Assembly: GCA_043827025.1 (NCBI GenBank)
Contig: JBDRPL010000018.1
Span: 1 to 33,898, forward strand
Origin: Candidatus Micrarchaeota archaeon
GTDB lineage: Archaea > Micrarchaeota > Micrarchaeia > Anstonellales > Bilamarchaeaceae
Direction of reading: 5' to 3'
DNA: 33,898 nucleotides
Position 1 is the first letter of the stretch. Each line of letters begins with the position of its first letter. Of this stretch, positions 2,227-33,898 are shown piece after piece. A program made the position numbers and the translations under genes. The notes under the pieces are model-generated. The model ran no database searches, was not told where the DNA came from, and saw only the letters and a list, made by a program, of their open reading frames with translations.

Positions 2227-3270
2227 ATGAGATTCATCGACCTTTTGCTAGTTTTCATACCTATCACGCTTATCCTAGGATTTTTCGTAACCCAAGATCC
2301 ACTGATTCTTTTTGTATCTTCAGTTCTTGCCATAGTCCCATTGGCAGCAAAGATGGGCGAGGCAACCGAGGAATTGGGAAAGCATTATGGAGGCCATATT
2401 GGAGGTTTGTTGAATGCAACATTTGGCAATTCGGCTGAACTTATAATTGCCCTTATAGCAATAAACAGCGGTCTTATTGATTTGGTGAAAGCATCCCTTA
2501 CAGGTGCAATAATCGGCAACCTCTTGTTTGTTTTGGGGTTCAGCATGCTTGTTGCAGGCTTCAAGTACAAGGAACAAAAGGTATCACAGTCCCTTGCAGG
2601 TATGAACTCAACAATGCTTTTGATAGCATTCATGTGCATAATGATCCCTTCTGTCTTTCACCTTTTTCCAGGTCATACGCTTACAAAGGAATACAATTTC
2701 TCGATAATCGTCTCCATTCTTCTTTTGCTTGTTTATGTGGCAAGCCTTGGATTCTCTTTGATAACTCATAAGCATCTTTTCATGGCAGAGCACAAGAAAG
2801 AGAAGCCAAAATGGTCTAAGAGAAAGGCAATGAGCATGCTTGCATTGGCTACAATTGCCCTTGTATTGATGTCTGAAGTGCTTGTAGGCCAGGTGGAGCA
2901 GGTTGCAAAGAACTTTGGCCTGAGCGAGATATTTATCGGTGCTGTAATAATCGCAATAATCGGCAATGCAGCGGAACATCTGGCAGCCATATTCTTCGCA
3001 TTAAAGAATGACATTGATGTTGCAATAAACATCACAGTTGGCTCGTCATTGCAGATAGCAATGTTCGTTGCTCCTGTTTGCGTACTTGTTGGCGAGCTTC
3101 TGATGAATCAGCCCATGGATCTTGTTTTTACTCCATTGGAAATAATTGCTGTCTTTTCATCAGTTTTGATAGTGAACGAGATATCCAATGACGGAAAATT
3201 CAACTGGTTCGAAGGACTGCAATTGATAGTAATGTATGCGATAATCGCAGCACTGTTCTTCTTTATCTGA
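2227..3270 (+). CDS. Ca2+/H+ antiporter (CaCA family, ChaA/CAX-like)
   Basis: About 11 hydrophobic segments; alpha repeats LLNATFGNSAE and IIGNAAEH; GSSLQIA. Confidence 0.95.
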   Translation: MRFIDLLLVFIPITLILGFFVTQDPLILFVSSVLAIVPLAAKMGEATEELGKHYGGHIGGLLNATFGNSAELIIALIAINSGLIDLVKASLTGAIIGNLLFVLGFSMLVAGFKYKEQKVSQSLAGMNSTMLLIAFMCIMIPSVFHLFPGHTLTKEYNFSIIVSILLLLVYVASLGFSLITHKHLFMAEHKKEKPKWSKRKAMSMLALATIALVLMSEVLVGQVEQVAKNFGLSEIFIGAVIIAIIGNAAEHLAAIFFALKNDIDVAINITVGSSLQIAMFVAPVCVLVGELLMNQPMDLVFTPLEIIAVFSSVLIVNEISNDGKFNWFEGLQLIVMYAIIAALFFFI

Positions 3271-3393
3271 TGCTTAGCGAACCAGACTACGTTGTTTAGC
3301 CAGTATTCTGCAGCTCTGGTGAAAACCTGGTTCGCTTTCAACAAAGGCACAAGATCCGTTGTTATTTCAAACGGTCTTATTACCAGTTCCTGT

Positions 3394-3512
3394 TTGATTT
3401 GATGAACTGGGTCCATACCCCGCTGCTTGCAGCGAAATCCAGTTCATCAAAGCTGTGACCGAATGGGGCATACCCTATCAGCTTGCTGTGGGGTCCCTTC
3501 GGTCACATTGAT
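3394..3512. mobile_element. REP/MITE-like double-hairpin element bounded by TTGAT direct repeats
   Basis: Inverted repeats TTTGATGAACTGG/CCAGTTCATCAAA (3398-3410/3439-3451) and TGTGACCGAA/TTCGGTCACA (3454-3463/3498-3507), each enclosing an ATACCC...GCTTGC core; 3393-3424 is identical to 33818-33849. Confidence 0.7.
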
Positions 3513-3585
3513 TCTTGTTTCAATCGAGATTGCAGGCTCTTTGTTTGTTGGCATACGTTTTTGGCGTTTTACATATCAAAAGAGG

Positions 3586-4197
3586 TTAAACAATCTGTTT
3601 CAGGAAATGCCTGTGAAACAAAGTATCTTTCGTTAATTCGGGATGAAAAGTAGCAACAAGATAATATTTGTTTCCTGATTTTTCCTCTGCAACAATCAAT
3701 TCGCCATTCAATTCTGCGATTGCCTTGACTTTTTTGCCTATTGTCTTAATCTTTGGCGCCCTTATGAAAACTGCATGCGCCTTTATCTTCTTTCCATCAA
3801 GTTTGGCCTCGATTTTCGTTTCAAAGGATTCAGTCTGCGGGCCGTAGGCGTTTCTATCTGCTTCAATATCCATCAATTCAAGTGTTTGTTGTCCTTCGAT
3901 AAGGCCTTTCACCTGCTTTGCAAGCATTATCGCGCCTGCACAGGTTCCGAATATCGCATGAACTTTTTTGATTTCTTCGGCTATACCTTCGCGTTCAATC
4001 AGCTTCCATAATGTAGTCGATTCTCCACCTGGAATGATGAGCCCATCGAGACCTTCAAAATCTTTTTTATGCTTGACTGGTACGACTTCGCATTTTATTT
4101 TTAGTTCATTCGCAGCCTTTTCCGTTGTATGAATATGCTCAACCACTCCGCCTTGGAATGAGAGGATTCCTATCCTGATGGGATTCATAAGTTGCAT
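3586..4197 (-). CDS. pdxT: PLP synthase glutaminase subunit
   Basis: QGGVVEH, LIIPGGESTT, FGTCAG, RNAYG, FIRAP, TFHPEL. Confidence 0.96.
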   Translation of the reverse strand: MQLMNPIRIGILSFQGGVVEHIHTTEKAANELKIKCEVVPVKHKKDFEGLDGLIIPGGESTTLWKLIEREGIAEEIKKVHAIFGTCAGAIMLAKQVKGLIEGQQTLELMDIEADRNAYGPQTESFETKIEAKLDGKKIKAHAVFIRAPKIKTIGKKVKAIAELNGELIVAEEKSGNKYYLVATFHPELTKDTLFHRHFLKQIV

Positions 4198-4514
4198 TTA
4201 CACCCTTTTCTTTTTATCCTATTCCTTTGCTCTTCAATCGTGTCAATCTTTTCAAGTTGGATCGGTTTGCCAGTTGCAAGCCTTTTGTCCAAAGGACTCC
4301 TGTGGCAATAGCCTCGTTTTTCCATCTCGCCAACCAGCTTTTCATGCCTGAGATAAAGCGCTTTCAGTTTTCCTTTCCATCTTAGGGTTTCTGGATGCTG
4401 AGAGTAACCTTTCTTGCTTTTCGTGATTATGCTCCAAATAGCATGCAACTCTCTGTGCTCGCCAAGAAGATGCTCTCTGCAAAGTTTGCCAGGTTTAACA
4501 TCCCAGATTCTCAT
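4185..4514 (-). CDS. Pyrimidine dimer DNA glycosylase / endonuclease V-like protein
   Basis: MRIW...LCREHLLGEHRELHA, HPETLRW, EMEKRGY. Confidence 0.85.
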   Translation of the reverse strand: MRIWDVKPGKLCREHLLGEHRELHAIWSIITKSKKGYSQHPETLRWKGKLKALYLRHEKLVGEMEKRGYCHRSPLDKRLATGKPIQLEKIDTIEEQRNRIKRKGCKCNL

Positions 4515-4574
4515 AACTAGTTTATACTCCTCGTTTGGCCATCTTATTGGACTGCGTTCAATTTTGTCATTTCG

Positions 4575-5441
4575 TTACCTCAATGCCATCCTCTGTTCTT
4601 CTGGAATAGTTCCAATCTCGATTCCTTTCATCGGTTCTCCCAATCCTTCGGAAACCTTTGCAAGGAACTTCGCATCATTGAAATGAGCAACAGCATCAAC
4701 AATTGCCTTTGCCCTTTTGGAAGGGTCAGATGACTTGAATATTCCTGAGCCCACAAATACACCATCGCAACCAAGTTGCATACATAATGCGGCATCTGCA
4801 GGTGTTGCAATGCCTCCAGCTGCGAAATTAACAACAGGCAATCGCTTGAGCTCCATTGTCTTCTTGACAATTTCAACTGGAACTCGATATTCATTTGCCT
4901 TTTCTTTCAGATTTTCAGGACATAATGCTGCAATTTCATTATTGATTGTTCTGATGTGCTTGACAGCTTCAACAATGTTTCCAGTGCCTGCCTCGCCCTT
5001 TGTTCGGATCATTGCAGCGCCTTCATTTATTCTTCTAAGCGCTTCGCCTAAATTGCGTGCACCGCAGACAAAAGGTGCTTTGAATTTGCTTTTGTCAACA
5101 TGATTGTCATAATCAGCTGGTGTCAACACTTCACTTTCGTCAATGAAATCCACGCCAATTGCTTCAAGTATCTGGGCTTCTACGAAATGGCCAATCCTGC
5201 ACTTTGCCATAACTGGAATGGAAACTGCTTTCTTGATTTCAATAATCATTTTTGGATCAGACATCCTTGCAACCCCGCCCTGTGCTCGAATATCTGCTGG
5301 CACTCTTTCCAATGCCATGACTGACACTGCGCCTGCCTTTTCTGCGATGCGTGCATGTTCAACATTAACTACATCCATTATGACCCCTCCCTTGAGCATC
5401 TGAGCAAGCCCGCTTTTGACTGTGAATGTTCCTTTTTCCAT
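4575..5441 (-). CDS. pdxS: PLP synthase lyase subunit
   Basis: [52 protein letters not shown]. Confidence 0.98.
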
Positions 5442-6955: not shown

Positions 6956-9266
6956 GTGCCTTTCCACTGACTTTTGTTGGAGAATTTCCACCTCCCTTTT
7001 TTCCCTCTTCCCTTAGCCTTGACTCTTCCTTCAACAGTTCCTTGAACAAGATATTCCATTTCTTAGCTACTGCCCCAAAATCTATGGTGCCATCTTCCTT
7101 TTCCATCGTTGTAAGCAATCTGTTTGCAGCTGTGTTGGCTTCTACTACGAAATCTATATCTGCAATCAGTGGGTCCTTGAGCGCCATGCTTGCGCGATAG
7201 ATGTCATCATATATCTTTCCCTTGAAGAATGCCTGTAGTATATACTGTTCAGGTGAGATTCCGGTTTCTTCGCACCTTCTTGCAAGTGCAGGGGGAATTG
7301 TAATTATTTCAAGCTCTTTCTCAAGTTTCGCTATGTCCAATTTTTCGAATGAATTCATGCTTGCCTCTGGATTCCTTATGAATTTGCATTCCCACTTGCA
7401 ATCATCTATATTCATGCCTCTTCTGAACCTGAATACTTCTACGAATTTCTTTTCTTCAAGGTCGCTTTCGTATTCATAACCTATTACCCTATATACCCTT
7501 CCTTTCCTTCCGAACCTTATCTTTTTCAGGAAGGTGTACCTGTCGGTTGCGAACATTGAGGCTGCAGGTATTCCAAACACTAATTCGAGTCTATCCTGCA
7601 CATCTTTCAAAGATTCTGCATGCAGGTTGTAAAGCAAGAAGACACCTGGCTGAGTGTTCAGTAAATTGATTATTCCCTGAACTGCAGTACGGGAACGAAC
7701 TTCGTTTATTATAAGCGCGGCATCACCCATTCTTAGAAGGGCATTTGCCATTGACACAAGGTCAAGCTCCTTGGATTCTGTGCCTTCTACATCAGAGCTC
7801 TGCACTCTTGCTGCTCCTATGTGAAATCCTCTTTTCCTGAATGCACGTACAGGTATTTCCTCTATGTCCTGGATTGGGATGATTCTTCTTCTTGTTCCGA
7901 TTGCTGTTATCTTTGCAGCAGTGAATGCTGTTTTTCCCACACCTTTCAATCCAAGAACTGCTTCGCTGCACCCAAGCGTCACCAACACATCATCATATCC
8001 CACAAGGAAAGGGCTCATAGATTTATAGTAAAGATATTGCGGATAGGTGAATGGCTTTTCCTTCATTATCCTCAGTGCACCCTGCAATTCTCCAAATGTT
8101 GCAGGAGGCCTCTGCAGGTGGCATCTCATTGACAATCTCTTCAACACAACATCTGCAATTGGATTTGTTTCATCGAACTTTCTTACTCCATGCATTAGAT
8201 ATGCAATATTACGGAATGCCCTTTCAAGCAATTCTCGGTTGTATCTGTAGAGCGTGTGGCACAATCCGAATTTTGCATGCTCGATATACAATGGCGAGTT
8301 TTCGCTGTCAATATAAACATCAGTTATGTTGTCCTTATCCAGAGCCATGTTTTCAATCGGCGCACCCAACCCCACAACCCAGGCAGCAGCTTCCCTTCCC
8401 ATCACAAGTGCTTCCTGGGGTGTGATCTTTATGTTATTCATTATCGCTTCATCCATGAACCTTTGCCTGTACTCCCTTGTCTTTGTTTCCATTAGTATTT
8501 CGAAATCAACATTTTCGAATACCTCTTTCATCTGCTCGTTTATTGTTTTCTTAAGCATTTCCTGAAGTTCTTTGCTTAGGTTTGAAATGCCTGGATTTTC
8601 CTGAATATATAAGTAAGCTTCATCTCCAGGGACTTCATAAATCTGGGCCGTAACTCCGAATGGCAGAACATACCTCGCATCCTTTGTTTCAAGAGGCTTT
8701 GCGCCAGCAGGAATGTCAAGCACTATTGACTCGACAAAATAAAGGCTCTTCAACTCTATCAATGAAAGGAACGCAGCCCTAAAATCCCCAGTCTTTTTCA
8801 CCAAATCATACATCTTGGTTTTCCTGAATGTCTTTAGTATGCCATTGACCCATGCCTTGAACTGCTGGAATCCCTTGAAAAACACATTTTTCGTTGGCTG
8901 GTCTTCCTGATAATCTGCAAGTTCCCTTTCTGCAAGAAGAGGGTTCACGAACATGAGCTCATAGAATTTTCTTATGAGCATCCTTCTTTTTTGGAATGCA
9001 GGATCCTGATTCATTCCATAGACATCTCCTCGTAATAGAAGATTCTCTATCTGCTTTATGACGCTTGCATATTCTGTCAGTATTGCAGTCTTTTCTTCGT
9101 TAAGCTCTATAACCATCTCTTCTTCGTACCTTATGGTCTTTATCGGAGCTTCTATGGTCGACAGGTCTTTCAGATGGAGGTTTATGAATTCCGGCGAGGC
9201 GAATTCGTAAGGGCATTTAGAAAGGTCTACGATTCCTCTTGTTCCTTCAATGGAAATATTGCACAT
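6945..9266 (-). CDS. Type II/IV secretion system ATPase (VirB11/CpaF/FlaI-like)
   Basis: Walker A GLKGVGKT, Asp box IQDIEE, ALLRM, Walker B-like LIINEVR, His box YNLHA. Confidence 0.85.
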   Translation of the reverse strand: MCNISIEGTRGIVDLSKCPYEFASPEFINLHLKDLSTIEAPIKTIRYEEEMVIELNEEKTAILTEYASVIKQIENLLLRGDVYGMNQDPAFQKRRMLIRKFYELMFVNPLLAERELADYQEDQPTKNVFFKGFQQFKAWVNGILKTFRKTKMYDLVKKTGDFRAAFLSLIELKSLYFVESIVLDIPAGAKPLETKDARYVLPFGVTAQIYEVPGDEAYLYIQENPGISNLSKELQEMLKKTINEQMKEVFENVDFEILMETKTREYRQRFMDEAIMNNIKITPQEALVMGREAAAWVVGLGAPIENMALDKDNITDVYIDSENSPLYIEHAKFGLCHTLYRYNRELLERAFRNIAYLMHGVRKFDETNPIADVVLKRLSMRCHLQRPPATFGELQGALRIMKEKPFTYPQYLYYKSMSPFLVGYDDVLVTLGCSEAVLGLKGVGKTAFTAAKITAIGTRRRIIPIQDIEEIPVRAFRKRGFHIGAARVQSSDVEGTESKELDLVSMANALLRMGDAALIINEVRSRTAVQGIINLLNTQPGVFLLYNLHAESLKDVQDRLELVFGIPAASMFATDRYTFLKKIRFGRKGRVYRVIGYEYESDLEEKKFVEVFRFRRGMNIDDCKWECKFIRNPEASMNSFEKLDIAKLEKELEIITIPPALARRCEETGISPEQYILQAFFKGKIYDDIYRASMALKDPLIADIDFVVEANTAANRLLTTMEKEDGTIDFGAVAKKWNILFKELLKEESRLREEGKKGGGNSPTKVSGKAPNQ

Positions 9267-9297
9267 ACTACCTATTCGAACTTATCTTTTTTAAACA

Positions 9298-10140
9298 TTG
9301 ATTAACCATATGATTCTAATGAAAGCACGTTTTCTTCTGTTTCTGGCGCTTGTTCTTGTCATATCTCTCTTTGGATGCGTCCAGCCTGAGAAAGAAGAAT
9401 CAATATCTTTTGAACAGCAGGACATTAGAATAATCCAGCAAATCCAGAATAATCTTTCTCTCAAAGTTCGAACTGTTCGGGGAGACCATTTCCTTGACAT
9501 TGGGTTGCTGAATGACAAAAATGTCCCTATGATGGCTGAGAATGTGAGCATCGCAGTGAAGATAAGCGATGCAGAAGGTGGGCTTTATTTTGAAAAGAGA
9601 TTTGTACCCAGCATTGAAAACAACTACACTTTTGAGATAAAGCGCGATAAGGTGAAGAAATCCTTCTATTCTTCCGGCACCCTAAATGTAACTGTGTTTG
9701 GAAAGAAGAACCTTTCGATTTCTTCCAATCTTTTGCTCAACAAATTCTCTGCTGACGAGGCAAGGTTTGTAGAGAATGACGCGTACATGAAAACATCAAA
9801 AGTGGTGAATGAGACTGTGTTTACAGAATGCCTGGAGATCTATGTTGAGAGGGCAGGCTATTCAGCGTGGCACAATCTTGATCAAAGAGACCAGCATTTT
9901 CGTGTGGATGTCAGCATACGCAATACCTGTCATTACAATGTTCTTTTCTCTCCGGAAAGTTTGTGGCTAAAAGATGAGGCAAGGAATTTTTTCCCTCCTA
10001 CTTCAAAGGGAACTCTCAATTCATTCTATTTGGGATATGACAACTCGAAATCAGGAACTCTTCTATATAACATAATAAGGCCAAGGGCAAACATCTATCT
10101 TTATTACAAGGATCTGAAGCTTGTGGATTTTTCTAATTAA
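9298..10140 (+). CDS. Hypothetical secreted lipoprotein-like protein
   Basis: MKARFLLFLALVLVISLFGC signal with lipobox-like LFGC; beta-rich C-terminus. Confidence 0.7.
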   Translation: MINHMILMKARFLLFLALVLVISLFGCVQPEKEESISFEQQDIRIIQQIQNNLSLKVRTVRGDHFLDIGLLNDKNVPMMAENVSIAVKISDAEGGLYFEKRFVPSIENNYTFEIKRDKVKKSFYSSGTLNVTVFGKKNLSISSNLLLNKFSADEARFVENDAYMKTSKVVNETVFTECLEIYVERAGYSAWHNLDQRDQHFRVDVSIRNTCHYNVLFSPESLWLKDEARNFFPPTSKGTLNSFYLGYDNSKSGTLLYNIIRPRANIYLYYKDLKLVDFSN

Positions 10141-10143
10141 TCC

Positions 10144-11757
10144 TCATTCTTTTGCACAAGCCTTCATGAATGCCAAAAACAAAGGAGATGGCCTTTCTAG
10201 TCTTGAAACGAATTCTGGATGGAACTGCCCTCCCATGAAGAAAGGGTGATCTTTAATTTCAGTAATCTGCATTATGTTTCCTTTCGGTGCTTTGCCTGAG
10301 AACACCAGCCCTGCATTTTCCAGCTTTTTTATGTATTCTGGATTTATTTCGTATCTGTGCCTGAACCTTTCCCTTGCAATTTCTGAATTGTAAATTTTGT
10401 GAGCATGTGTTCCAGGTTTAATTATGACGTCTTGCCCTCCGAGTCTGAGGGTTCCGCCCATCTCAAGCATTGATTCTTTTTCAGGAAGTATCTTGACAAC
10501 AGGGTTTTCTGTTTCGGGTTCGAATTCAGTTGAATTCGCATTCTTGAAACCGCAGACATTTCTTGCATATTCAATTACCATAAGTTGCATTCCAAGACAC
10601 AGGCCAAGATATGGCATCTTGTTTTTCCTTGAATACTCAACAGCTCTTATTTTTCCTTCAACACCTCTTTTTCCGAATCCTCCCGGAACAACCAATCCAT
10701 CCAGAGGCTTCAATATCTTTTCAACGTCTTTTTCTTCCAGGTCAGCTGACTCTATGAAATGTATATTCAATTTGTGATCAATTGCAGCTGCTGCATGCGT
10801 CAAAGCCTCATTCGCGCTGACATATGCATCTTTGACAGCGGTGTATTTTCCGATCATTCCTATGTTCAGTTCTTTCTTTGAGGGTCCTGTTATTTTTTGC
10901 ACGAGCTTTTTCCATGCCTCTATCCCTCCTCTTCTTTTTTCCAATCCCAGTTTTTCCACGATTATGTTGTATAAATTTTGCTTCTCAAGAGCAAGCGGAA
11001 GCTCGTAGACTGTTCTTACGAACGGGTCATCAATAACTGCCTTTTCAGGAATGCTGCAGTACAATGCTATTTTTTTCTTAGTGTCTTCAGTTATTTTTTC
11101 CTGTTCTCGGCATATGATCATGTCTGGCTGAATGCCAAGACTCTGGAGGAGGCGGGTTGCATGTTGCGTTGGCTTTGTTTTCTGCTCGCCTTCTGACAGG
11201 CTTGGAACGTATGTCAGTTGGATGAACATTCCTTTTTCTTCTGTCAACAGCTGTCGCATTGCTTCCAAGAAATAGCCATTTTCAAGGTCTCCTGCAGTTC
11301 CACCAACTTCGACAAGGATTATGTCTGCTTTGCTTTCTTTTCCTACTTTTCTCACCCATTCCTTGATTTCATCAGTTAAATGAGGGATGAATTGCACATC
11401 TCTTCCAAGATAATCTCCTTTTCTTTCCTTTTGAATTATCCTCTGGAATAATTTTCCTCCAGTTATGCTGCATATCCCAGGAAGGTCTATGTTGAGGAAT
11501 CTTTCATAAGTGCCGAAGTCCATGTCAACTTCTGTTCCATCATCCAAAACAAAGACTTCACCGTGCCTATAGGGGTTCATGGTTCCACAATCTACATTGA
11601 GGTAACCATCGAATTTAATAGGTATCACAGAATAGCCTGTTGAGCTAAGGAGTTTTCCGATGGAAGAAGAGAGTATTCCCTTACCAAGACCGGACATGAT
11701 TGATCCAGCCACTACTATGAATTTAGGTTTTTTAGTCATAAGGAATATTACGTACAA
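10144..11757 (-). CDS. pyrG: CTP synthase
   Basis: MSGLGKG, YLNVDCGTMNPYRHGEVFV, KTKPTQH, LGLCLGMQ, ERFRHRYE, QFHPEF. Confidence 0.98.
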   Translation of the reverse strand: MYVIFLMTKKPKFIVVAGSIMSGLGKGILSSSIGKLLSSTGYSVIPIKFDGYLNVDCGTMNPYRHGEVFVLDDGTEVDMDFGTYERFLNIDLPGICSITGGKLFQRIIQKERKGDYLGRDVQFIPHLTDEIKEWVRKVGKESKADIILVEVGGTAGDLENGYFLEAMRQLLTEEKGMFIQLTYVPSLSEGEQKTKPTQHATRLLQSLGIQPDMIICREQEKITEDTKKKIALYCSIPEKAVIDDPFVRTVYELPLALEKQNLYNIIVEKLGLEKRRGGIEAWKKLVQKITGPSKKELNIGMIGKYTAVKDAYVSANEALTHAAAAIDHKLNIHFIESADLEEKDVEKILKPLDGLVVPGGFGKRGVEGKIRAVEYSRKNKMPYLGLCLGMQLMVIEYARNVCGFKNANSTEFEPETENPVVKILPEKESMLEMGGTLRLGGQDVIIKPGTHAHKIYNSEIARERFRHRYEINPEYIKKLENAGLVFSGKAPKGNIMQITEIKDHPFFMGGQFHPEFVSRLERPSPLFLAFMKACAKE

Positions 11758-13401: not shown

Positions 13402-14091
13402 CTAAATCTTATTCAGCGCCTCTTTTATTTTGTCTATTCCCAATTTTGTTATAATGAGCGGAATCCTTTCCTTTTCTGAGATCTTGTATGCTAGTTTGTC
13501 CAGCTTCTCGATTTCGAGGCCGTGCATCACAACTGCAGATGGCCTTGAAGGGCTGACTCTTAAAACAACCATAGGGCTTCTGCCTGTGGAAACTCCTGTA
13601 AAGATAAACACTCTTTCATTTATGTTTCCGTAAAGGTTCTGAAAATAGGTAAAAGGCATCTCAAGAATCACTTTCATGCTGTCAATAAGTGTATATCCAT
13701 ATATTTTCTTAGTCTCAAGAAGGTCTGCATTTGAAATTGCCTGGCCTTTTATCAGGTTGACAAAATCAAGCAGTGTAATGCCTCTTGCGAATTCGTGGAC
13801 TTCAAAATATTCGTTTGTTGGCTTTTGGCTGCCTGTTAATTTCTGTGAAATAGTGCCTCCTTTTGCAACATCTATGTTAAACAATGCCATGACGAACCTT
13901 TTGATAACATGGCTTCCAGGCGACTTTCTTCTATTGCCTTCGTAATCGCTGATCGTAGATACAGTGATGGACAAATGACGGGCTAATTCAACCTGGCTTA
14001 TGCCGAAGATCTCTCTCCATTTGCGCATGGTTGCTCCTGGGTCTTCAGAAAAGGCAATTTCACCGGCTATTTCCATTTTGATCTTATCCAT
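13402..14091 (-). CDS. XRE-family HTH transcriptional regulator (archaeal COG1709-like)
   Basis: IAGEI...PGATMRKWREIF, ISDYEGNRRKSPG, FTGVSTGRSPMV. Confidence 0.9.
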   Translation of the reverse strand: MDKIKMEIAGEIAFSEDPGATMRKWREIFGISQVELARHLSITVSTISDYEGNRRKSPGSHVIKRFVMALFNIDVAKGGTISQKLTGSQKPTNEYFEVHEFARGITLLDFVNLIKGQAISNADLLETKKIYGYTLIDSMKVILEMPFTYFQNLYGNINERVFIFTGVSTGRSPMVVLRVSPSRPSAVVMHGLEIEKLDKLAYKISEKERIPLIITKLGIDKIKEALNKI

Positions 14092-14172
14092 GCTTTACAC
14101 CTGCAAAATGGAGAGACTTGAACCGCAGTTCAAGCGGATTTCCATTTTGATTTTATCCATCGTTTACACCTG
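14069..14172 (-). repeat. 35-bp direct repeat of the regulator's RBS and start codons, with an intervening hairpin
   Basis: 14069-14103 vs 14138-14172, 32/35 identical; hairpin CTTGAAC-N4-GTTCAAG between the copies. Confidence 0.9.
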
Positions 14173-16919: not shown

Positions 16920-17090
16920 ATGAAGTTTTCAATTGGCAAAATACTCATGATTGTAGGGGTTGCATTGATAATTTACAGTTTCATAACCTCGCCATTTAAT
17001 ATCTACCTAGATGTCATCGCATTTTTTCTGATACTTGGAGGTGTGATGACTTTCAAGAAAAGTTTGGATTCGAAAAAAGATGAGAAATAG
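16920..17090 (+). CDS. Small two-TM membrane protein (56 aa)
   Basis: Below the track cutoff. Manual translation MKFSIGKILMIVGVALIIYSFITSPFNIYLDVIAFFLILGGVMTFKKSLDSKKDEK, preceded by a GTGA RBS-like motif. Confidence 0.7.
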   Translation: MKFSIGKILMIVGVALIIYSFITSPFNIYLDVIAFFLILGGVMTFKKSLDSKKDEK

Positions 17091-17105
17091 AAATTTTATG
17101 AATGA

Positions 17106-17122
17106 AAATTGGGCCCGCCGAG
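17106..17122 (-). repeat. att-like duplicate of the tRNA-Ile 3' end
   Basis: AAATTGGGCCCGCCGAG identical to 19940-19956 (tRNA positions 61-73 plus 4 nt of trailer). Confidence 0.88.
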
Positions 17123-17124
17123 CA

Positions 17125-17202
17125 GAGAAGTTGCGGGTCCAGAGTTCAGAGTCCTGGGTTTAACGTCTTGAGTTTCGTGGTTTTCTGTTCCGAGTTCAGC
17201 GT
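17125..17202 (-). repeat. Degenerate heptamer tandem repeat (AC-N5 units on the minus strand)
   Basis: Plus strand gagaagt tgcgggt ccagagt tcagagt cctgggt ttaacgt cttgagt ttcgtggt tttctgt tccgagt tcagcgt. Confidence 0.8.
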
Positions 17203-17241
17203 TTTTTAGATGCTGCTTTCCGAACTTGTTTTTGTTCAAAC

Positions 17242-18627
17242 TCATACGATTTCACCTTTTTTGTTTCTTAGAATATAATATACGCCCCTATATCTCCCAA
17301 TTTTTTCTAAATAACCAAATTTGAGCATCTCATTTATTTCAGCCACTGCAGTTCCAAAGGAAATCTTATTCAGTTTCATGTACATTTTTGTCTTTATTGA
17401 TTTGTTTTTCTGGAGGAATTCAATGCTTCGTATCTGCCTTTCATTCAAATCAGCATATGATTGTATTGCCTTAAGTTTGCCTTTTTTATTTCGCAAGATT
17501 ACTCTAAAGAATAGTTCATAAATGCCAAATTCCGGATCCTGTAATCCGTATTCTCTCATGCCATTAATCATGCGTGGCACTCCTGATCCCAATCCTTCTA
17601 CATAACCATAATCTCTCAATAGCCTATATGTTATTGGGTTCCTTCTTACAGATATTGTTCCAAAAAGTTCCTTTGTTAATCCTTGAGGTAAAGAACCAGG
17701 GTTTGTTATTTCTATCCTGTCATCAAAAAGATATATCTGGATAGAATCTTTGCTGAAATAATCCCTGTGAGCAACTGCATTTACTATCGCTTCTCGGACT
17801 ACCTCTATGGGATATTGATATTTTTCTTCTCTTTTAGCATCACCCTTAATCTCTATGCTTCTTGGCAGATTGGACTTTATGAAGGCCAGCGACCTTTCTA
17901 TGGATTCAATTAAATCTGCCTGAACGAGTTCATGTGAGACAATTTTTACCGGTTCAATTCCTTCAAATCTCACAAGTTTGATTTCTATTTGTGGATACAA
18001 CATAACTGGATTTTTAGCAAAGAACAGGAGTGTTGCATTTTTTATCCTAAGTTCTCCATCTTTTGTAGCAAGTTGCATGCTTACCAGGAAGTCTTCCAAG
18101 GAATGCACATCCAGAAACTCCTGCTGTCTTCTGATCTTCAGATATTGCCTTACCTTTTCAATATCTATCTCCTCAATTGTTCTGCTGTTGGGGGTTTCGT
18201 CAAAACATAGGATCTGTTTTGCCCTGAGAAAATCAACCATCTGGTTTCCTTCTATTTTTTTCAGCGTGCTGCCAACCTTAACATATATGACTCCTTGAAA
18301 AGTATGGAACGTATTATCTATCGCTTTTTGTATAGTTACAGCGATAATATCCTTGCCGTCAACTTGAACTACTTCTACTGTTGGTATAACCGGAGAGGAG
18401 ACAGCCTGTGCAGATGCTGAAATTTTTTGTTGGACGGCATCAACGTCTTCTTGGATGCCAATAATTGTTTTTACGGAATTTACGCCAACAAGGATTACTC
18501 CTCCGTAGGTATTGGCCAGTGCGCACATGATTTTTGAAAACTCCTGAGAACTGTGAAATGATTGCTTGAGTTCAACTTCCTGGGATTCGCCACTTTCGAT
18601 TATTCTCATCAATCTTTCCTTTTCCAT
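17242..18627 (-). CDS. AlbA_2 (Schlafen-like) + HATPase_c_4 + C-terminal HTH protein
   Basis: GESQEVELK, CALANTYGGVILVGV; REAIVNAVAHRDY, IEITNPG, RRNP, YVEGLGSG; C-terminal winged-HTH-like region. Confidence 0.92.
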   Translation of the reverse strand: MEKERLMRIIESGESQEVELKQSFHSSQEFSKIMCALANTYGGVILVGVNSVKTIIGIQEDVDAVQQKISASAQAVSSPVIPTVEVVQVDGKDIIAVTIQKAIDNTFHTFQGVIYVKVGSTLKKIEGNQMVDFLRAKQILCFDETPNSRTIEEIDIEKVRQYLKIRRQQEFLDVHSLEDFLVSMQLATKDGELRIKNATLLFFAKNPVMLYPQIEIKLVRFEGIEPVKIVSHELVQADLIESIERSLAFIKSNLPRSIEIKGDAKREEKYQYPIEVVREAIVNAVAHRDYFSKDSIQIYLFDDRIEITNPGSLPQGLTKELFGTISVRRNPITYRLLRDYGYVEGLGSGVPRMINGMREYGLQDPEFGIYELFFRVILRNKKGKLKAIQSYADLNERQIRSIEFLQKNKSIKTKMYMKLNKISFGTAVAEINEMLKFGYLEKIGRYRGVYYILRNKKGEIV

Positions 18628-18635
18628 ATTATCAC

Positions 18636-18729
18636 TTTACTATCAATTTACACTAATAGTAATTGATAGTATTTATAAACTTTCCTCCTGTGCCTGGCAA
18701 AATATTCATGAGTTTTACTATCAATTTAC
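18636..18729. promoter_or_regulatory. Putative operator: inverted repeat plus third half-site around a TATA box
   Basis: TACTATCAATT (18638-18648) N12 AATTGATAGTA (18661-18671), TTTATAAA at 18672-18679, and TTTACTATCAATTTAC repeated at 18636-18651 and 18714-18729. Confidence 0.65.
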
Positions 18730-18905
18730 TGTATACTTTACTGTATATTTTCGAGATATACAGTTAGTATATACTTATTTTACGTTTTATTTTTTTATAA
18801 TACTTGAATAAACTCAAAACAATCTTAAGGTGGAGCGAGGGCTGGGTGAGGGGATACCTACGGATTTAAATCTCTTAAAGATCAGATCATGAAGTTGATA
18901 GTTTT

Positions 18906-19679
18906 ATGGATATTGGCATGTATGACAAGAAATTAGTCTGTAATTACAAAAGCAAATCACAGATTGCAAGAGTTCTCACGGAAAATTGGTTCTTGCGACA
19001 AATGTATTGTCCTAATTGTCTGGCTTCTCCAGTGAACAAAGAAAAAGATAATTCTAAAGTTGTTGATTTTTCCTGTTTTTACTGCAGACGTTTCTTTCAA
19101 CTTAAAGGCCAGAATAAGAAATTTGGTCTAAAAATGAATGATGGAGCATACTCTCCAATGATTGAACGAATTGAAGCAGGTAAGTCTCCAGATTTTTTCT
19201 TTATGGAATATACTCCGGAGGAATATGTCGTTAAGAATCTTTTGTTAGTCCCATCTTTTTTTGTGACTTCTTCTGTAATTGAGAAAAGAACTCCTTTGTC
19301 AAAGCATGCCGTAAGGGCAGGATGGACTGGTTGTAATATTTTGCTTTCCAAGCTTCCGGAAGAAGGAAAAATAACTGTAATAAAGAACGAAAGAGAAATA
19401 GAAAAGGAAGAAGTAAAACGAGTTTATCATAAGTTGATTTTCTTAGAAGCAGAGAAACCTACTCAGAGAAGTTGGATTACAGATGTCTTAAGATGTGTTC
19501 AAAACTTGGACAAAGAAAACTTTGTACTTGATGAAGTTTACTGTTTTGAAAATGAACTGAAGCAGTTATATCCAAATAATCTGCACATTAAGGATAAAAT
19601 ACGTCAGCAGTTGCAGATTCTAAGAGATAAAGGAATTTTGGAGTTTGAAGGACAAGGAAAATATAAACTTAGAAGGTGA
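18906..19679 (+). CDS. DpnI-family (Dam-replacing) methyl-directed restriction endonuclease
   Basis: YKSKSQIARVLTE, YCPNC, DFxCxxC, FQLK, DGAY, RAGWTGCNI, and C-terminal wH motif KDKIRQQLQILRD. Confidence 0.93.
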   Translation: MDIGMYDKKLVCNYKSKSQIARVLTENWFLRQMYCPNCLASPVNKEKDNSKVVDFSCFYCRRFFQLKGQNKKFGLKMNDGAYSPMIERIEAGKSPDFFFMEYTPEEYVVKNLLLVPSFFVTSSVIEKRTPLSKHAVRAGWTGCNILLSKLPEEGKITVIKNEREIEKEEVKRVYHKLIFLEAEKPTQRSWITDVLRCVQNLDKENFVLDEVYCFENELKQLYPNNLHIKDKIRQQLQILRDKGILEFEGQGKYKLRR

Positions 19680-19683
19680 TTTT

Positions 19684-19893
19684 TTGTCAAAATATCTTGT
19701 GTTGGAAATAGGAGGATCTGTAAGGACTGAGTTTCTTATGAAGAATGGCGAATATGAAGAGACAGAGGATGCTGTTCTGATCGGACACGTAGATGCTGAA
19801 TCCGAATCTGAAGCTTTGGATGCCATACTAAACCAGCCTGATTTTGAGGAAAGGAAATTCGATCATCTGATAGCATACAAGATACTTAGGTAG
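19684..19893 (+). CDS. Small acidic hypothetical protein (~69 aa)
   Basis: TTG start just after AAGGTGA, which overlaps the nuclease stop codon; the ORF track starts at 19645. Confidence 0.6.
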   Translation: MSKYLVLEIGGSVRTEFLMKNGEYEETEDAVLIGHVDAESESEALDAILNQPDFEERKFDHLIAYKILR

Positions 19894-19935
19894 ATTGAAG
19901 ATCCAAGACTCAAGACGCTGTACACTAGACCAAAA
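19894..19935 (+). repeat. Short heptamer repeat tract
   Basis: ATTGAAG ATCCAAG ACTCAAG ACGCTGT ACACTAG ACCAAAA. Confidence 0.55.
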
Positions 19936-19943
19936 AGATAAAT

Positions 19944-20205
19944 TGGGCCCGCCGAGATACTCATTGTTCTCAGTTTTCCGTATGGTGTTTCGAAATCTGA
20001 AAACACTTTGAATTCCCGAAACTTTTGGACTGATTGTTTTTGATGAAACTTTTTCCAAAAAGTTTCCTCGGGACCTACGGCTGCCCTAGACCGTATTAGA
20101 AACTCATTTTTAGGAAGTTTTTGATGAAACTTTTTCCTAAAAAGTTTCTTGTATTAGACGGGGTCATATAAGACCGTCGCTCTAACCGGGCTGAGCTACG
20201 GGCCC
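19944..20205 (-). tRNA. tRNA-Ile(UAU) with three introns (37/38, 53/54, 59/60)
   Basis: Exons 20205-20167, 20082-20067, 20012-20007 and 19957-19944 join to GGGCCCG TA GCTC AGCCCGGTTA GAGC G ACGGT CT TAT AA GCCGT AGGTC CCGAG TTCAAAT CTCGG CGGGCCC A (75 nt, complete cloverleaf, no encoded CCA). Each junction lies in a BHB or BHB-like motif. Confidence 0.92.
20036..20148. repeat. Palindromic element shared by tRNA introns 1 and 2
   Basis: GTTTTTGATGAAACTTTTTCC(T)AAAAAGTTTC at 20036-20066 and 20117-20148. Confidence 0.9.
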
Positions 20206-22108: not shown

Positions 22109-22474
22109 TTAATCTTGTTGTTGCCTGGAAATCAGTCCTTCCTTTCTTTTTTTCAGTCCAATCCATATCAATCCTATTCCGACATGGGTTGCCATTAATA
22201 AAGAGAATGTCCCGATTCCGATAATGAAGAAGCTTGAAATTTGGGTTTCGATTAAACTTCCCATCACTCCTGCCATGACTGAAACAGGGATATATTCAGG
22301 TACAAACGTCTGCACTTTGGTTTCCTTGATGAGCGCATGCTTGTCGTCCAGGAAATCAGATACGTTGTCGCTTCCTATCCTGAACCGAGCATCCATTAAT
22401 CTTGAGAAGCCTATGCCAGCTCTTTCCATGTCACTGCAAAGCGCTAGCCTTTTTCTTTTGTCCCTTTCATTCAA
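22109..22474 (-). CDS. Hypothetical membrane protein with shared C-terminal motif
   Basis: ATGA overlap with the upstream gene; hydrophobic C-terminal half. Confidence 0.7.
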   Translation of the reverse strand: MNERDKRKRLALCSDMERAGIGFSRLMDARFRIGSDNVSDFLDDKHALIKETKVQTFVPEYIPVSVMAGVMGSLIETQISSFFIIGIGTFSLLMATHVGIGLIWIGLKKRKEGLISRQQQD

Positions 22475-23829
22475 TCGCCTGGCTCATCGAAGAATTCCTT
22501 TTCTTTGCCATTCTTTATCGCCAGCCCTGCCTGTATCAGCCTTTTTCCAATATACAATGCTGTAAGAGGTATGAATGTGGCAAATCCAACCCAGAAGAAT
22601 CCTGCTGTCATTTCCCACAATCCGGTTCCTACTGATGAATTCAAATGCGAAGCGCATTGAGCGCAGCTGTTTATGGTTCCAATCAATCCTGAGACCACTC
22701 CGATATTTACAACAGTATTCCAATTAACTACTGCATTCATGTCATCATGATTAACTCTTAGTGTGTAGGCCAGACTCGAAATACTGATCCCCTGGCGTTT
22801 CATTTCAGTGAAAAGTCTTTCTCTAAATTCATTTCTTCTTAGGGCAATATCGCTTTGGGTTCCTTCATCCCATTTTTCTGAGAGTTGCCTTCTTAGTGTA
22901 TTATCTATTTCATAAAGGAGTTGTCGGATTTTGTATTCGTTTCTAGAGCCATTCAACTCCCTTCTTTCTGAAAGCAATTTATTGCACAGCCTGGATCTTT
23001 TGATTAGATCTATGGCCTCATGCCCATATAATCTTGCAAGCAAGATCATTGCCTTTATTTCTGCATCTGTTGTTTTTTGATTGAACTGTATTGCTTCTTT
23101 CAAATCACATATCTGGCCACACTTATGGTCATTATGAAAAACACAGCGTTCAAGAACTGATTCAAGCGTATAAAAATTCAAATCTCCATCAGGATCGCTT
23201 TGCATTATTCCTTGCAATTTTTGTTTTGCCTTTCCTGTTTCTTCTGAAATTAATCTTTCAAGAAATGCAGGGTGCACTTTGACAACTGCGTTTCTTGCTG
23301 TGAACTTATATCCCATCAACTGATCAATGATTTCAAATGCCTTGAATGTACCATCCCTTGCCAATGCATCTGCGAATTCAAGGATTGCTGGAGTATACTC
23401 TATATCATCAGTTGTTGTGTAGTAGTTATATTCTTGCTTTTTAAAAAAAACTGCAATAAGCCTGTCAACATCTCCTGATGCTTCTGCCTGCCTTATTCTA
23501 TTTATGAGTGTTTCGCTCACCTTTTCAATGATGCGAGCTCTGGTAACTGGACCTATTTCATGTTCTTCAGGAATCTTGCTGAACGGTATGTATCCGCCGG
23601 AACCTTCAAGGAAAGCATCAACTGCTGTCACTATAACTTCCTCAACCTGATTTCGGTCCTTTACTATTGTCCATAATCCTTCATGGTTGCCGGTCCTTTT
23701 CAAGTTCTCTATAATTCGAAGCATGGCTTTAGCCGGTGGTTCTACAATAGGCGTGGCTGTTCTTGGAATTCCATTGCCTGGTCCTCCGCCTCTGCCAGCA
23801 TTTTCAAATGTGTTTCTTTTGAATTGCAT
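22471..23829 (-). CDS. Hypothetical helical protein with shared C-terminal membrane motif
   Basis: 452-aa ORF with GTGA RBS-like motif, low-complexity N-terminus and hydrophobic C-terminus. Confidence 0.75.
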   Translation of the reverse strand: MQFKRNTFENAGRGGGPGNGIPRTATPIVEPPAKAMLRIIENLKRTGNHEGLWTIVKDRNQVEEVIVTAVDAFLEGSGGYIPFSKIPEEHEIGPVTRARIIEKVSETLINRIRQAEASGDVDRLIAVFFKKQEYNYYTTTDDIEYTPAILEFADALARDGTFKAFEIIDQLMGYKFTARNAVVKVHPAFLERLISEETGKAKQKLQGIMQSDPDGDLNFYTLESVLERCVFHNDHKCGQICDLKEAIQFNQKTTDAEIKAMILLARLYGHEAIDLIKRSRLCNKLLSERRELNGSRNEYKIRQLLYEIDNTLRRQLSEKWDEGTQSDIALRRNEFRERLFTEMKRQGISISSLAYTLRVNHDDMNAVVNWNTVVNIGVVSGLIGTINSCAQCASHLNSSVGTGLWEMTAGFFWVGFATFIPLTALYIGKRLIQAGLAIKNGKEKEFFDEPGD

Positions 23830-23833
23830 GATT

Positions 23834-26674
23834 TCACTTCTTTTCCTGTTCCTTCTTCATTTCCAATCCTGTAAGTATCATTCCTGCGCCAATCAGGGTT
23901 GCAATGAAACCAACTGCCGTACCAATTATTCCGAATACCATGAATTTTCCAATTGCAAATGTAGTTTCCTGGCTTGCCACATAAACCCACGCAGGTATGT
24001 TCAGAAGCCCAGCTCCAAGAGATCCTATTATTGCAACTGTGGATCCCCTTGCCTTGTTGAACATTGCAGTTGCATCCTCTGCCAGGAATTTCGCTTTCAG
24101 GAAAATCTTTCCCACGCCGCTGATCATCTTTGCTTCAATTGCAATTTCAGTAAGTTCTCTTTTCGTTGCACTGTTTTTTTCATTCCTTATTGCTGATAAT
24201 GCTCTGACTTTTGATGATTCACGTTCCCCTTCGTTCAACTGAGGTATAATCGCACAGAGTTTCCTTGTCACTCTTAATCTAGTTGCAGATGAAATTGATC
24301 CAGAATCAAGTGCATTTCTATATGCGATTGCCTTTACTCTTTCTTTGAACTGTTCTCTGTTTTGGGTCAGGGCCCTTGCCTTCATAAGGAATTGTCCAGT
24401 ACCAACCAATGTATTTGTGTCATTCAATGAAATGAATGTTTCGCAGTTTGTATCTTCTCCGTATACTGCCACATCATCTTCATGCGATGTCACTTCATTT
24501 ATTATCTCGTTTATTTTCAATATTTCGCGCTTTCCCAATATTTCGAGGATCAATTTTTTTGGTGTTTCAGCAAGATTCGGCAGGTTGAGCATCCTCTCTA
24601 ATGTAGTATGTGCTCCTTCTGTTCCAAGTGCATCAACCTGTTGGATTATCCAAGGCTGGTCTTCTTCTGCAAACATTCCAAATGATCGCAATAATCTGCC
24701 ACTGCAGATCATTTCATCTAATTTCTGCAAAACTGTTTCTTTAGCCTTTTTCTTTGCATATTCCTTTGTCCCTTTGTCTCTCACACGCGGTTCATTTGCA
24801 ATCCCTGCAAGCTGTTCAACTGCCCCTAGTTCTACCAATGCATTCATTGCCCCAATTGCAATATCTTCGTATTGATAAGTAAAGATAAATTTCATGAGCC
24901 TGCTGCAATCCTTTTCTTGTTTTAACTTTGCTATTGTCTCAAGTTCATTTCCGACTTTTGCAGCAATGCATGTCCTGTCGTCGTTTTTCCCACCATTGTC
25001 ATTTGCAATTGCAAATCTTATTCTTCTTTCTGCATGTATGACTGGGTCAACTGTTCCTGTAAATTCAGGAACGCCATGTGCTTTGGTAATATCCGTTATT
25101 CCGTCTGTTTCCAGAACCACAAGCCCAAGAAGAAGCTCAGTTCTATGTACTGAAGGGATGGCTTTAGCTGGGTTTCCGTCAAGTGTTCTTACAATTACGC
25201 TTTTTGCATCTGCAACCGTCAAAAACCGTTTGGGGCTATATGGGCTTGAGTGAACTCCGCCGTTTGGCCCCCTCATGATTTCCATGCCTTCGCGTATCTC
25301 TGGCCACTTGTGGCTCATATTATTTTGCATCTCCCGAGTTACAATCACGGGTTTCCATTCCGTGTTTGTTAACTCAACATACAAACTATGCTCAGTAGTT
25401 ATTGGAACAGCTGTACTGTCAAACGAAAGTGCATGCCCATTGCTGTCACCAACATTTGCTGAATCTATGATTGTAATTCCTGCTGCGTTTCGAGTCAGTT
25501 TTGCAATTGCAATTGTGGTTCCGCCTTTTTCAAGCGAATTATCGCCTTCGGAAGTTCTCTGTACCTTGTTTTCTTTCAGCTTTTGGTTTGCACCTGCTAT
25601 TATTTGGGCAAGGTCTTCTTCAACTCCTGCGTTAATTCTTGAGGCCACTTCATTCAATACGAGTTCGTTGCATTCGCCTCCCCCTCCGTGTCCGCCCACT
25701 CCATCTCCAACTACAAAATAACTAGCTCCATATCTGTTGGGCCATGCGACCCCATCTTCGTTTTCTCCAGGTTGGAATTTATTCCCGTCCTTCATGTTTC
25801 GCACACTTACTGAATAACTTCCGTCATTAAAATCATAGTACCTGTATGAGCCAATTTCTCTTTTTTGCTTCGCCCAAGGGAGGGAGTCGCTGTGTTCCTG
25901 TGAAATTGCATAGCATGCTAGAGACACCCATCTGATTGGAGGTAATCCTGCCTCAGCTTGAATCTGATCTACCCTGTAAGCAAGTTCAACCATGCATGAC
26001 CTGAACAATTCGAATTGCTTCCATTTGTTCCTTGGCATTGACTCTAACGAGAGGATCCATTTTTTTATCCGTTCAGGCGTTTTTGTCCCCTGCTGGAAAT
26101 TGAACTGCAATGTTAATTGTGTTATTTCTGGAGCAGTACTACGGTCACGTATGTGTTCCCATTCTCCCTGGTGCAGAGATCTGGCAGGCATACTTACTCC
26201 TTCTTGAGCGCTTGCACAATCGTTCATTTCACGTATTATCTCACCAACTGCACGTGGTGTTGTTCCTGTGAGTGTAACTAGGATTGATTCTTCTCCAGAA
26301 GCAGTTCCTGAACCGACTATATTTAAATTTCCCAATTTGCAATCATCTATCTTAACCTCTCCAGTCCTGAATCTTCCATGTGTTTCATAGCTTGCTTCAA
26401 CAAGTTTCCTGAGCTCTTGAGTCGACTCTCTGCCCAGTGCAAGTTCTGCAATGAATCCCTCAACACTTTGGTGTTTTCCTGTTGCCAACTGTTGAACAAC
26501 GCTATGAAAATAAGGATCATTTATTTTTATCCCTTCAACCATCCTTGCAGCCCGCCTTTGGACTTCAATTTGCTGTTCAGTCCGCGTGTCCAGGGGAGCT
26601 GTTGGTCTTGGCGGTGAAGATGATCTAGCTTCTGGTGCATGGTTAGGTCTACGAAGTCGTCTGTCGGGATTCAT
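23834..26674 (-). CDS. Multidomain PPM/PP2C-family Ser/Thr phosphatase with helical repeats and C-terminal TMs
   Basis: ENED, VVGDGVGGH, GGTT, ANVGDS, TEHS, ETDGITD and NDDRT in the PPM motif order (~24960-25800). Confidence 0.85.
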   Translation of the reverse strand: MNPDRRLRRPNHAPEARSSSPPRPTAPLDTRTEQQIEVQRRAARMVEGIKINDPYFHSVVQQLATGKHQSVEGFIAELALGRESTQELRKLVEASYETHGRFRTGEVKIDDCKLGNLNIVGSGTASGEESILVTLTGTTPRAVGEIIREMNDCASAQEGVSMPARSLHQGEWEHIRDRSTAPEITQLTLQFNFQQGTKTPERIKKWILSLESMPRNKWKQFELFRSCMVELAYRVDQIQAEAGLPPIRWVSLACYAISQEHSDSLPWAKQKREIGSYRYYDFNDGSYSVSVRNMKDGNKFQPGENEDGVAWPNRYGASYFVVGDGVGGHGGGGECNELVLNEVASRINAGVEEDLAQIIAGANQKLKENKVQRTSEGDNSLEKGGTTIAIAKLTRNAAGITIIDSANVGDSNGHALSFDSTAVPITTEHSLYVELTNTEWKPVIVTREMQNNMSHKWPEIREGMEIMRGPNGGVHSSPYSPKRFLTVADAKSVIVRTLDGNPAKAIPSVHRTELLLGLVVLETDGITDITKAHGVPEFTGTVDPVIHAERRIRFAIANDNGGKNDDRTCIAAKVGNELETIAKLKQEKDCSRLMKFIFTYQYEDIAIGAMNALVELGAVEQLAGIANEPRVRDKGTKEYAKKKAKETVLQKLDEMICSGRLLRSFGMFAEEDQPWIIQQVDALGTEGAHTTLERMLNLPNLAETPKKLILEILGKREILKINEIINEVTSHEDDVAVYGEDTNCETFISLNDTNTLVGTGQFLMKARALTQNREQFKERVKAIAYRNALDSGSISSATRLRVTRKLCAIIPQLNEGERESSKVRALSAIRNEKNSATKRELTEIAIEAKMISGVGKIFLKAKFLAEDATAMFNKARGSTVAIIGSLGAGLLNIPAWVYVASQETTFAIGKFMVFGIIGTAVGFIATLIGAGMILTGLEMKKEQEKK

Positions 26675-33812: not shown

Positions 33813-33817
33813 ATCTC

Positions 33818-33898
33818 TTTGATTTGATGAACTGGGTCCATACCCCGCTACTCCCGATTGTTGCGTAGCGCAACAATGGGCATCTTGTTGCATTGCAA
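33818..33898. mobile_element. Second copy of the REP/MITE-like element (probably truncated by the window end)
   Basis: 32 bp identical to 3393-3424, then a different hairpin ATTGTTGCG-TAG-CGCAACAAT. Confidence 0.65.

Follow-up and report, generated by a model that had tools for sequence, protein, structure and literature searches.

The integrases known as suicidal carry their attachment (att) site inside the integrase gene, and integration into a tRNA gene splits that gene into int(N) and int(C) (PMC8371274, PMC7253208). The cited portions of the review literature place them in one PF16795 lineage of single origin, found mostly in hyperthermophiles (PMC8371274). Thaumarchaeota harbor cryptic integrated elements of 2.6 kb upward that are defined by their integrase, which is intact in nearly all of those covered by the sections cited here, and one of these elements, NitEve-E3, has an SSV1-like split enzyme (PMC6563490). 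Here we describe an island of ~2.8 kb at a tRNA-Ile(UAU) gene of a DPANN archaeon, Candidatus Micrarchaeota archaeon (GCA_043827025.1), within a stretch comprising the whole of contig JBDRPL010000018.1 (33,898 nt; contig C18, hereafter the window). We put the probability at roughly 80% that the island is left over from a mobile element whose tyrosine-integrase gene contained its own attP, was split by insertion of the element into the tRNA gene and was then mostly deleted, the island being a decayed member of a family of small Micrarchaeota integrative elements. G-, C- and L-numbers denote genomes, contigs and loci, respectively; G000 is the host genome (1.33 Mb, 36 contigs, about 92% complete) and G001 (74% complete) belongs to the same genus.

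The island lies between two copies of a 17-bp direct repeat (17106–17122 and 19940–19956) that show no mismatch, and this 17-mer occurs exactly twice in the 1.33-Mb genome (chance expectation ~5e-5 per genome). An initial annotation made from the sequence had reported a perfect 17-bp duplication of the tRNA end bracketing three genes, and both repeat and genes were confirmed. Base composition, to which it had also pointed, marks the island as AT-rich and atypical, with a GC content of 36.2% compared to about 41% (within the lowest 1.5% of 2467 windows) and a tetranucleotide distance in the top 2.7% of 450 windows. Its list of three genes overlooked a fourth open reading frame (ORF) at 17096–17245 on the minus strand and a 54-bp integrase stub at 19904–19957. 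The features of the locus are as follows.

17106–17122, minus strand: attR, the distal attachment site, a 17-bp duplicate of the tRNA 3′ end (repeat search)
19940–19956, minus strand: attL, the tRNA-side attachment site, tRNA positions 61–73 plus 4 trailer nt (repeat search, arm symmetry)
17096–17245, minus strand: intN, putative N-terminal half of a split integrase, 49 codons (homologues at att repeats of related elements)
17130–17202, minus strand: left att arm within intN, AC dinucleotide with a ~7-bp period (sequence periodicity)
17242–18627, minus strand: protein with Schlafen AlbA_2, GHKL ATPase and probable helix-turn-helix (HTH) domains, 461 aa (Pfam, motifs)
18628–18905, no strand: divergent intergenic region with a 16-bp direct repeat at 18636 and 18714 (repeat search)
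18906–19679, plus strand: DpnI homologue, 257 aa (Pfam, PADLOC, PDB 4esj)
19684–19893, plus strand: small acidic protein, 69 aa (25 relatives)
19904–19957, minus strand: putative intC stub, first ~18 codons, with the right arm (GT, ~7-bp period; match to G002 intC)
19944–20205, minus strand: tRNA-Ile(UAU) with three introns (comparison with relatives)

Both ends of the island carry remnants of an integrase gene. The overlooked ORF, intN, follows a Shine-Dalgarno sequence (AGGTGA, 17257–17252) and reads across attR, and its homologues in related elements terminate at the att repeat; its DNA has loose matches in 27 other genomes, and 15 of the 29 other loci returned passed a check at the protein level. 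At the opposite end, the 54 bp 3′ of the tRNA show 80% identity over 54 nt to the start of an intact intC in G002:C15, where the same tRNA is followed by an intact tyrosine-recombinase frame of 329 aa that opens at the att core. This stub is the only intC match in the island (tblastn, 60% over 20 aa, E 3e-4) and is in frame with intN. Matches to the G002 intC protein came from 31 of 98 family genomes, with none in the 77 other genomes of the order. No catalytic recombinase domain was found among the island ORFs, leaving the element without a functional integrase. The island had been called integrase-free, which holds for the catalytic domain but not for the gene, since both pieces of the split integrase remain at the ends. 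We also considered the plus strand behind the distal repeat as a remnant of an integrase like that on host contig C19, which was dropped as G002 and G003 show the minus-strand arrangement.

The extent of the deletion can be read from the neighboring sequence. The Schlafen-GHKL gene extends with its last codons into the intN leader and has a stop that overlaps the start of intN; the protein is 6 residues longer than its G002 homologue (72% identity), and because the gene runs into the leader, these extra residues mark the other deletion junction. A gene for a four-helix protein (TIGR02436/PF05635) was present in 14 of 17 relatives' loci tested and a non-coding stretch upstream of it in 10 of 17, and neither was found in the island.

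Related elements show the same architecture at different stages of completeness. A repeat scan of 14 loci recovered an att pair in seven and an 11-bp pair in an eighth. Nine elements with this intN, including the one in the window, have both ends on one contig; they span 0.7–13.6 kb and target tRNA-Ile(GAU), tRNA-Ile(UAU) or tRNA-Val. Three of them have a whole intC and one has a single-base shift at the junction; in the other five, intC is missing, truncated or carries an internal deletion. Both halves are complete in L099, L101 and L102, and intC has been lost with the ends kept in several unrelated copies (L103, L104, L106 and the island described here). In G134 the same short stub survives the deletion and precedes the acetyltransferase gene found after intC in G002. 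Of 11 tRNA-proximal copies, 10 keep intC open in the Gly-Pro frame starting at the att core, even though the spacing ranges from 231 to 456 nt. A second group of homologues is reversed, with intC running inward from the distal repeat and intN antisense, towards the tRNA end, and a repeat pair was found in 8 of the 9 large loci of this group examined. Within a FastTree phylogeny the sense subclade had a support of 1.0 (9 tips); since the tree has only two distant outgroups, it supports the subclades and not an origin.

Several results bear on whether the parental gene was indeed split. All 16 elements checked have a Shine-Dalgarno sequence and an ATG ahead of intN, and the indels among 14 aligned intN copies are all in frame, among them 48- and 57-nt insertions and some small deletions. 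The intN and intC frames agree across att in 11 of 13 elements (sense 4/5, antisense 7/8); in the antisense group the frame varies (0, 1 or 2) yet agrees in those seven of eight (permutation P = 0.002). The start of intC varies between copies, whereas its frame from att is kept. G097 has a natural in-frame intN-att-intC fusion of 150 aa at a tandem site. These patterns make it improbable that the parent integrase was unsplit, starting inside what we call intC, with intN a long attP DNA arm that is open by chance, although such a gene would accord with the separate starts that gene callers assign to intC, with the 7-bp spacing of conserved columns in intN and with the lack of a full-length fusion in the protein database. 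As side observations, the palindromic 48- and 57-nt insertions occur at two fixed places in intN (L072, L077, L079, L081 and L082), and the intN copy of G128 has a stop inside such an insertion.

The DNA around the putative crossover supports a split at att. Tyrosine recombinases usually use a 7-bp overlap between inverted binding arrays, as outlined in the review sections cited (PMC8371274). In the window, intN DNA has AC about every 7 bp, mirrored by GT after attL, and the symmetry between the arms is centered on the middle base of GGGCCCA (tRNA positions 67–73), with 19 of 40 matches compared to 5–10 at six other registers (shuffle P = 0.0004). The same peak was observed in five of six other sense-oriented elements, and both arms are intact in the window. 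We infer a 7-bp crossover region, GGGCCCA, at 19950–19944.

Some observations weigh against a decayed, self-splitting element. Similar pyrimidine-rich trailers also follow some tRNAs without an element, so the 54-bp stub alone is weak evidence, and the 13 elements compared for frame are related and hence not independent tests. Symmetry in the antisense subclade has no single center. The conserved columns of intN follow the 7-bp DNA period, and its conservation may therefore partly reflect constraint on a DNA site and not on a protein. Among the 120 homologues listed, none was a full-length intN-intC protein of the sense subclade, and three longer candidates all had no integrase domain; because no such protein was found, the circular form is deduced and not seen. 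In the antisense subclade, P0069 has an N-terminus like the intN of that subclade. Searches of the intN peptide against metagenome contigs and of intC against viral contigs returned no match, and intC against phages and plasmids gave weak generic matches alone.

Comparison with described suicidal integrases indicates similar behavior in a different enzyme. As in SSV1/SSV2, pTN3/TKV4 and pT26-2, att lies in the integrase gene, the target is a tRNA 3′ end and the gene is split; the frame is also kept across att, a hallmark of SSV-type suicidal integrases in the cited accounts, and integrated copies are trapped (PMC8371274, PMC7253208). Unlike the SSV type, the Micrarchaeota enzyme has a PF00589 domain: none of four family intC proteins matched PF16795 (Phage_integr_3) at E 0.1, nor did any of 99 family genomes, while the SSV1 control scored 1.5e-61. 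There was no similarity to SSV1 Int (hhalign probability 0.4%, E 0.14; BLASTP E 3.2), which as a positive control retrieved the pT26-2 integrase, and the nearest solved structure was XerA (E 4e-12), SSV1 Int being the SSV-type enzyme compared. Identity blocks are also shorter (11–35 bp vs. 40–50 bp in the review sections cited; PMC8371274), the second subclade is split in antisense orientation and intC is deleted in the window. The sequences thus suggest an enzyme outside the SSV type that behaves as those integrases do, and an independent origin is likely. No published description of this family was found in searches on suicidal or split integrases in DPANN or Micrarchaeota, most subscription literature and the review's Table S1 being outside the search, and the family with this split integrase is apparently undescribed. 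The island resembles the Thaumarchaeota elements and tRNA islands in its small size, short repeats, variable cargo including restriction, and use of a tRNA with introns, as some of those do, but differs from the elements described in the cited sections in retaining the integrase ends alone (PMC6563490).

The target gene was not called as a tRNA by ARAGORN on the window or Rfam on the region, and was resolved at 20205–19944 (minus strand) by comparison with relatives whose tRNA-Ile(UAU) has the canonical intron alone (G012, G017 and G018). Its exons lie at 20205–20167, 20082–20067, 20012–20008 and 19958–19944, and its introns, which are 84, 54 and 49 nt long, at 37/38, 53/54 and 58/59 (59/60 is equally good). 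The initial annotation had placed the island at a tRNA-Ile 3′ end, which these relatives refine to a three-intron UAU gene. The 17-bp repeat sits downstream of all three introns, its tRNA portion entirely in the last exon (15 nt). ARMAN-2 (Ca. Micrarchaeum acidiphilum) also has a tRNA-Ile(UAU) and introns at such positions, and its multi-intron tRNAs share the UAU anticodon and introns at 37/38, 53/54 and in the T-loop; in contrast to those described in the cited portions of that work, three introns here occur together in tRNA-Ile(UAU) and the gene is an integration site via its last exon (PMC3239211). Separately, two of the introns share a hairpin module (20036–20068 and 20117–20149) that recurs in further tRNA introns, both in this genome and in relatives, and ARAGORN called 18 tRNAs in all in G000, each with introns, many multi-intron tRNAs being missed.

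Occupancy of this site varies among relatives. In G001:C5 (L019) the site is empty, with ~330 bp between the phosphoribosyltransferase gene and the same tRNA and a short degenerate duplication between them. Among the 175 other genomes of the order, the DpnI gene was found in three (E 1e-20), the Schlafen-GHKL gene in 19 (E 1e-60) and the small ORF in three (E 1e-3), with G001 in none of these sets. Because the G001 site is empty and the cargo patchy, the three genes are not syntenic core genes of relatives lacking the repeat. Downstream of relatives' tRNA-Ile(UAU) genes, an integrase came next at 1 of 14 loci (G002) and cargo of the window at none, 3 of the 14 having <300 bp of downstream sequence. 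The gene is nonetheless a recurrent target (G000, G002, G017, G090 and G146). Defense-type matches occurred in 7 of 14 related elements (8 of 14 with a reverse transcriptase counted; 69 ORFs ≥140 aa compared to Pfam, 64 of them to PADLOC), so that the proposed defense hotspot is borne out as to the recurrent target and half of the elements, the rest carrying other cargo.

A local duplication of the tRNA end or a chance match, with the genes arriving by other routes, could be suspected from the short degenerate att-like duplications with hairpins that follow several element-free tRNAs of the family, and from the G002 Schlafen-GHKL homologue, which lies at a non-tRNA site. The 17-mer is limited to two copies, however, and the intN and intC-start sequences beside it are those that complete elements have at other tRNAs; these complete relatives effectively refute such a duplication. 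As an observation apart, a hairpin of ~45–55 bp with acceptor-stem-like ends lies directly 3′ of tRNA ends or att sites in L019, L023, L034 and L036, and also in G000 on C19 near 1780 and C25 near 50400.

The anatomy of a decayed integrative element suggests the following history. The circular form would have intN, att and intC as a single open frame, and the enzyme would join the 7-bp GGGCCCA core, with inverted 7-bp-repeat arrays on each side, to positions 67–73 of tRNAs with this ending (Ile-GAU, Ile-UAU and Val). Sequence comparison shows that integration restores the tRNA, with intC left behind it and intN at the far end. By the same kind of comparison, the window copy has since lost nearly all of intC, the four-helix gene and the upstream non-coding module, such that the Schlafen-GHKL gene abuts the intN leader. 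Both att arms survive, self-excision would no longer be possible, and the island may persist because of its cargo.

Since both att arms are still present, the island might be mobilized in trans. It could be a still-mobile satellite cassette, for which loss of intC is a stable strategy and which is excised and relocated when a related element arrives whose integrase recognizes the intact arms. The intact arms and att copies with a perfect repeat, and the removal of intC with the ends kept in the unrelated copies listed above, are compatible with such a cassette, and pTN3/TKV4 provide a documented case of trans excision through a related integrase (PMC8371274). We nevertheless regard it as unlikely, although less so than an unsplit parent gene, given that the island has no replication gene, four-helix gene or non-coding module, and the full cargo set occurs together in none of the 175 other genomes. 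Furthermore, contigs of four DNA runs showed no circle or empty-site joint among five joints listed, contigs being unable to show absence. Run X1, possibly the source run, spans the island region without differences, while runs X2–X4 provided short identical pieces inside the island and flanks, of which none listed bridges a junction.

Integrases elsewhere in the host do not fill this role convincingly. G000 has three PF00589 matches, all outside C18, and we considered recombinases on C10, C19 with C25, and C20 as resident helpers. The sole integrase of the same family has its intC on C19 (790–1750) and its intN, four-helix gene and tRNA-Val on C25 (57013–58810); this element is of the antisense type, outside the sense subclade, and is itself split, with a 15-bp shared core and matching frames. 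A resident helper is thus unlikely, while an incoming helper is possible. The initial annotation had offered a reduced or trans-mobilized cassette, and the empty G001 site and patchy cargo bear out the former; the latter is possible. As a separate observation, G000 C20:1–18000 has its own tyrosine recombinase, ParA-like and helicase-like ORFs identified by eye, and two methylases, and is probably another mobile element.

The cargo of the decayed element likely includes two anti-virus genes stranded between the attachment sites. The DpnI homologue matches Pfam DpnI and DpnI_C, PADLOC mREase_II and PDB 4esj (E 9e-71, full-length alignment). It has a Cys4 zinc site plus a winged helix and is a predicted methyl-directed restriction endonuclease of type IIM. 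D54 and K67 of the PD-(D/E)xK motif are kept. Two points count against its activity in this setting: Q65 occupies the position of DpnI's Glu, which we take to be catalytic, Gln being also present in two of three homologues, and a Dam gene could be missed because the assembly is about 92% complete. No Dam was found above the cut-off in the host genome, whose single D12-class methylase is of another kind, and GATC is the most under-represented 4-mer (0.69), which suggests past GATC-directed restriction of unspecified source. In a host without Dam, the enzyme would cut incoming Gm6ATC-methylated DNA. R.DpnI of Streptococcus pneumoniae, which cuts Gm6ATC alone, likewise has two domains, Cys4, a winged helix and no cognate methylase, differing in its Glu for the Gln seen here (PMC4081073; PDB 4esj). 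The alternative DpnI/DpnII cassettes of pneumococci also have a parallel, as L111 (G017:C12), an antisense element at the same tRNA-Ile(UAU), encodes a D12 methylase, DpnII, a second methylase and Shedu (DpnII-type system at 2292–4776); here, unlike in the pneumococcal case as presented in the cited sections, the alternatives ride on separate integrative elements (PMC4081073).

The Schlafen protein combines SLFN_AlbA_2 (PF04326) and HATPase_c_4 (PF13749), with motifs E14-x4-E19-x-K21, CALAN and E279-xxx-N283; its C-terminal HTH was read from the sequence, and Pfam gave no HTH match. Stand-alone Schlatpases, common in that 58.6% of 103,533 SLFN proteins carry the pair, have the same Pfam pair and E(x)4ExK, SAFAN-like and ExxxN motifs, while tRNA cleavage was shown, in the parts of that preprint cited, for an Argonaute fusion alone, and the island protein has no Argonaute sensor (bioRxiv 10.64898/2026.05.29.728809). 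The protein is a candidate ATP-gated RNase or regulator, and may have a role in defense. The small 69-aa ORF had no Pfam match and belongs to a real family (25 relatives) that also occurs inside a related element in G013, with an Atlas lead to AF_1447/PF27350 (score 0.90). The intergenic region with the 16-bp direct repeat between the divergent genes is a possible operator, and blastn found no match to this region in the other loci compared. Sigma-70 promoter and terminator scans performed at chance level, their models being ill-suited to an archaeon, and no RNA dataset containing the island was listed. Among the related elements, L112 (G017:C9) has at 8405–10344 a reverse transcriptase in two ORFs beside the conserved non-coding stretch and the four-helix gene. 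The four-helix family presumably includes the accessory protein of diversity-generating retroelements, and the core module of these elements may be derived from such a retroelement.

Other features of the window lie outside the island. Directly beyond the distal repeat, a 56-aa hydrophobic ORF (16920–17090), which the G001 site also does not have, is possibly a separate or older insertion. A 38-bp direct repeat (95% alike; 3390–3427 and 33815–33852), with copies 30 kb apart, one of them at the end of the contig, resembles a small repeated element. A 35-bp duplication (14069–14103 and 14138–14172) spans the start of an HTH gene (13402–14091), and the region 22471–26674 has two large ORFs (452 and 946 aa) without a Pfam match.

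By itself the island is an ordinary decayed element, and its interest is moderate, as a member of a family. This locus contributes an end state in which intC is gone and the arms are intact, an inferred 7-bp core, an antisense subclade and integration behind three introns. The island represents an end state of gene capture, with the integrase gone and the restriction gene retained, and provides a small, defined substrate for tests of excision in trans. Found in 31 of 98 genomes of a single Micrarchaeota family, the Xer-like split enzyme would represent a second origin of such integrases. tRNA introns have been proposed as a shield against integration, an idea of Randau and Soll summarized in the cited part of PMC4090602, and an att core wholly in the 15-nt last exon of a three-intron tRNA is a counter-case. 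We tentatively propose, as a broader scenario that is possible but doubtful as a whole, that the self-splitting design evolved independently in Micrarchaeota on a XerA-like enzyme and operates in either orientation over the palindromic GGGCCC end of the tRNA. Recombination would then take place in the last seven tRNA bases between inverted 7-bp-repeat arms, so that three introns are no shield, and intC-less copies with both arms would form a helper-excisable pool of defense cassettes that swaps DpnI- and DpnII-type systems at the same tRNA.

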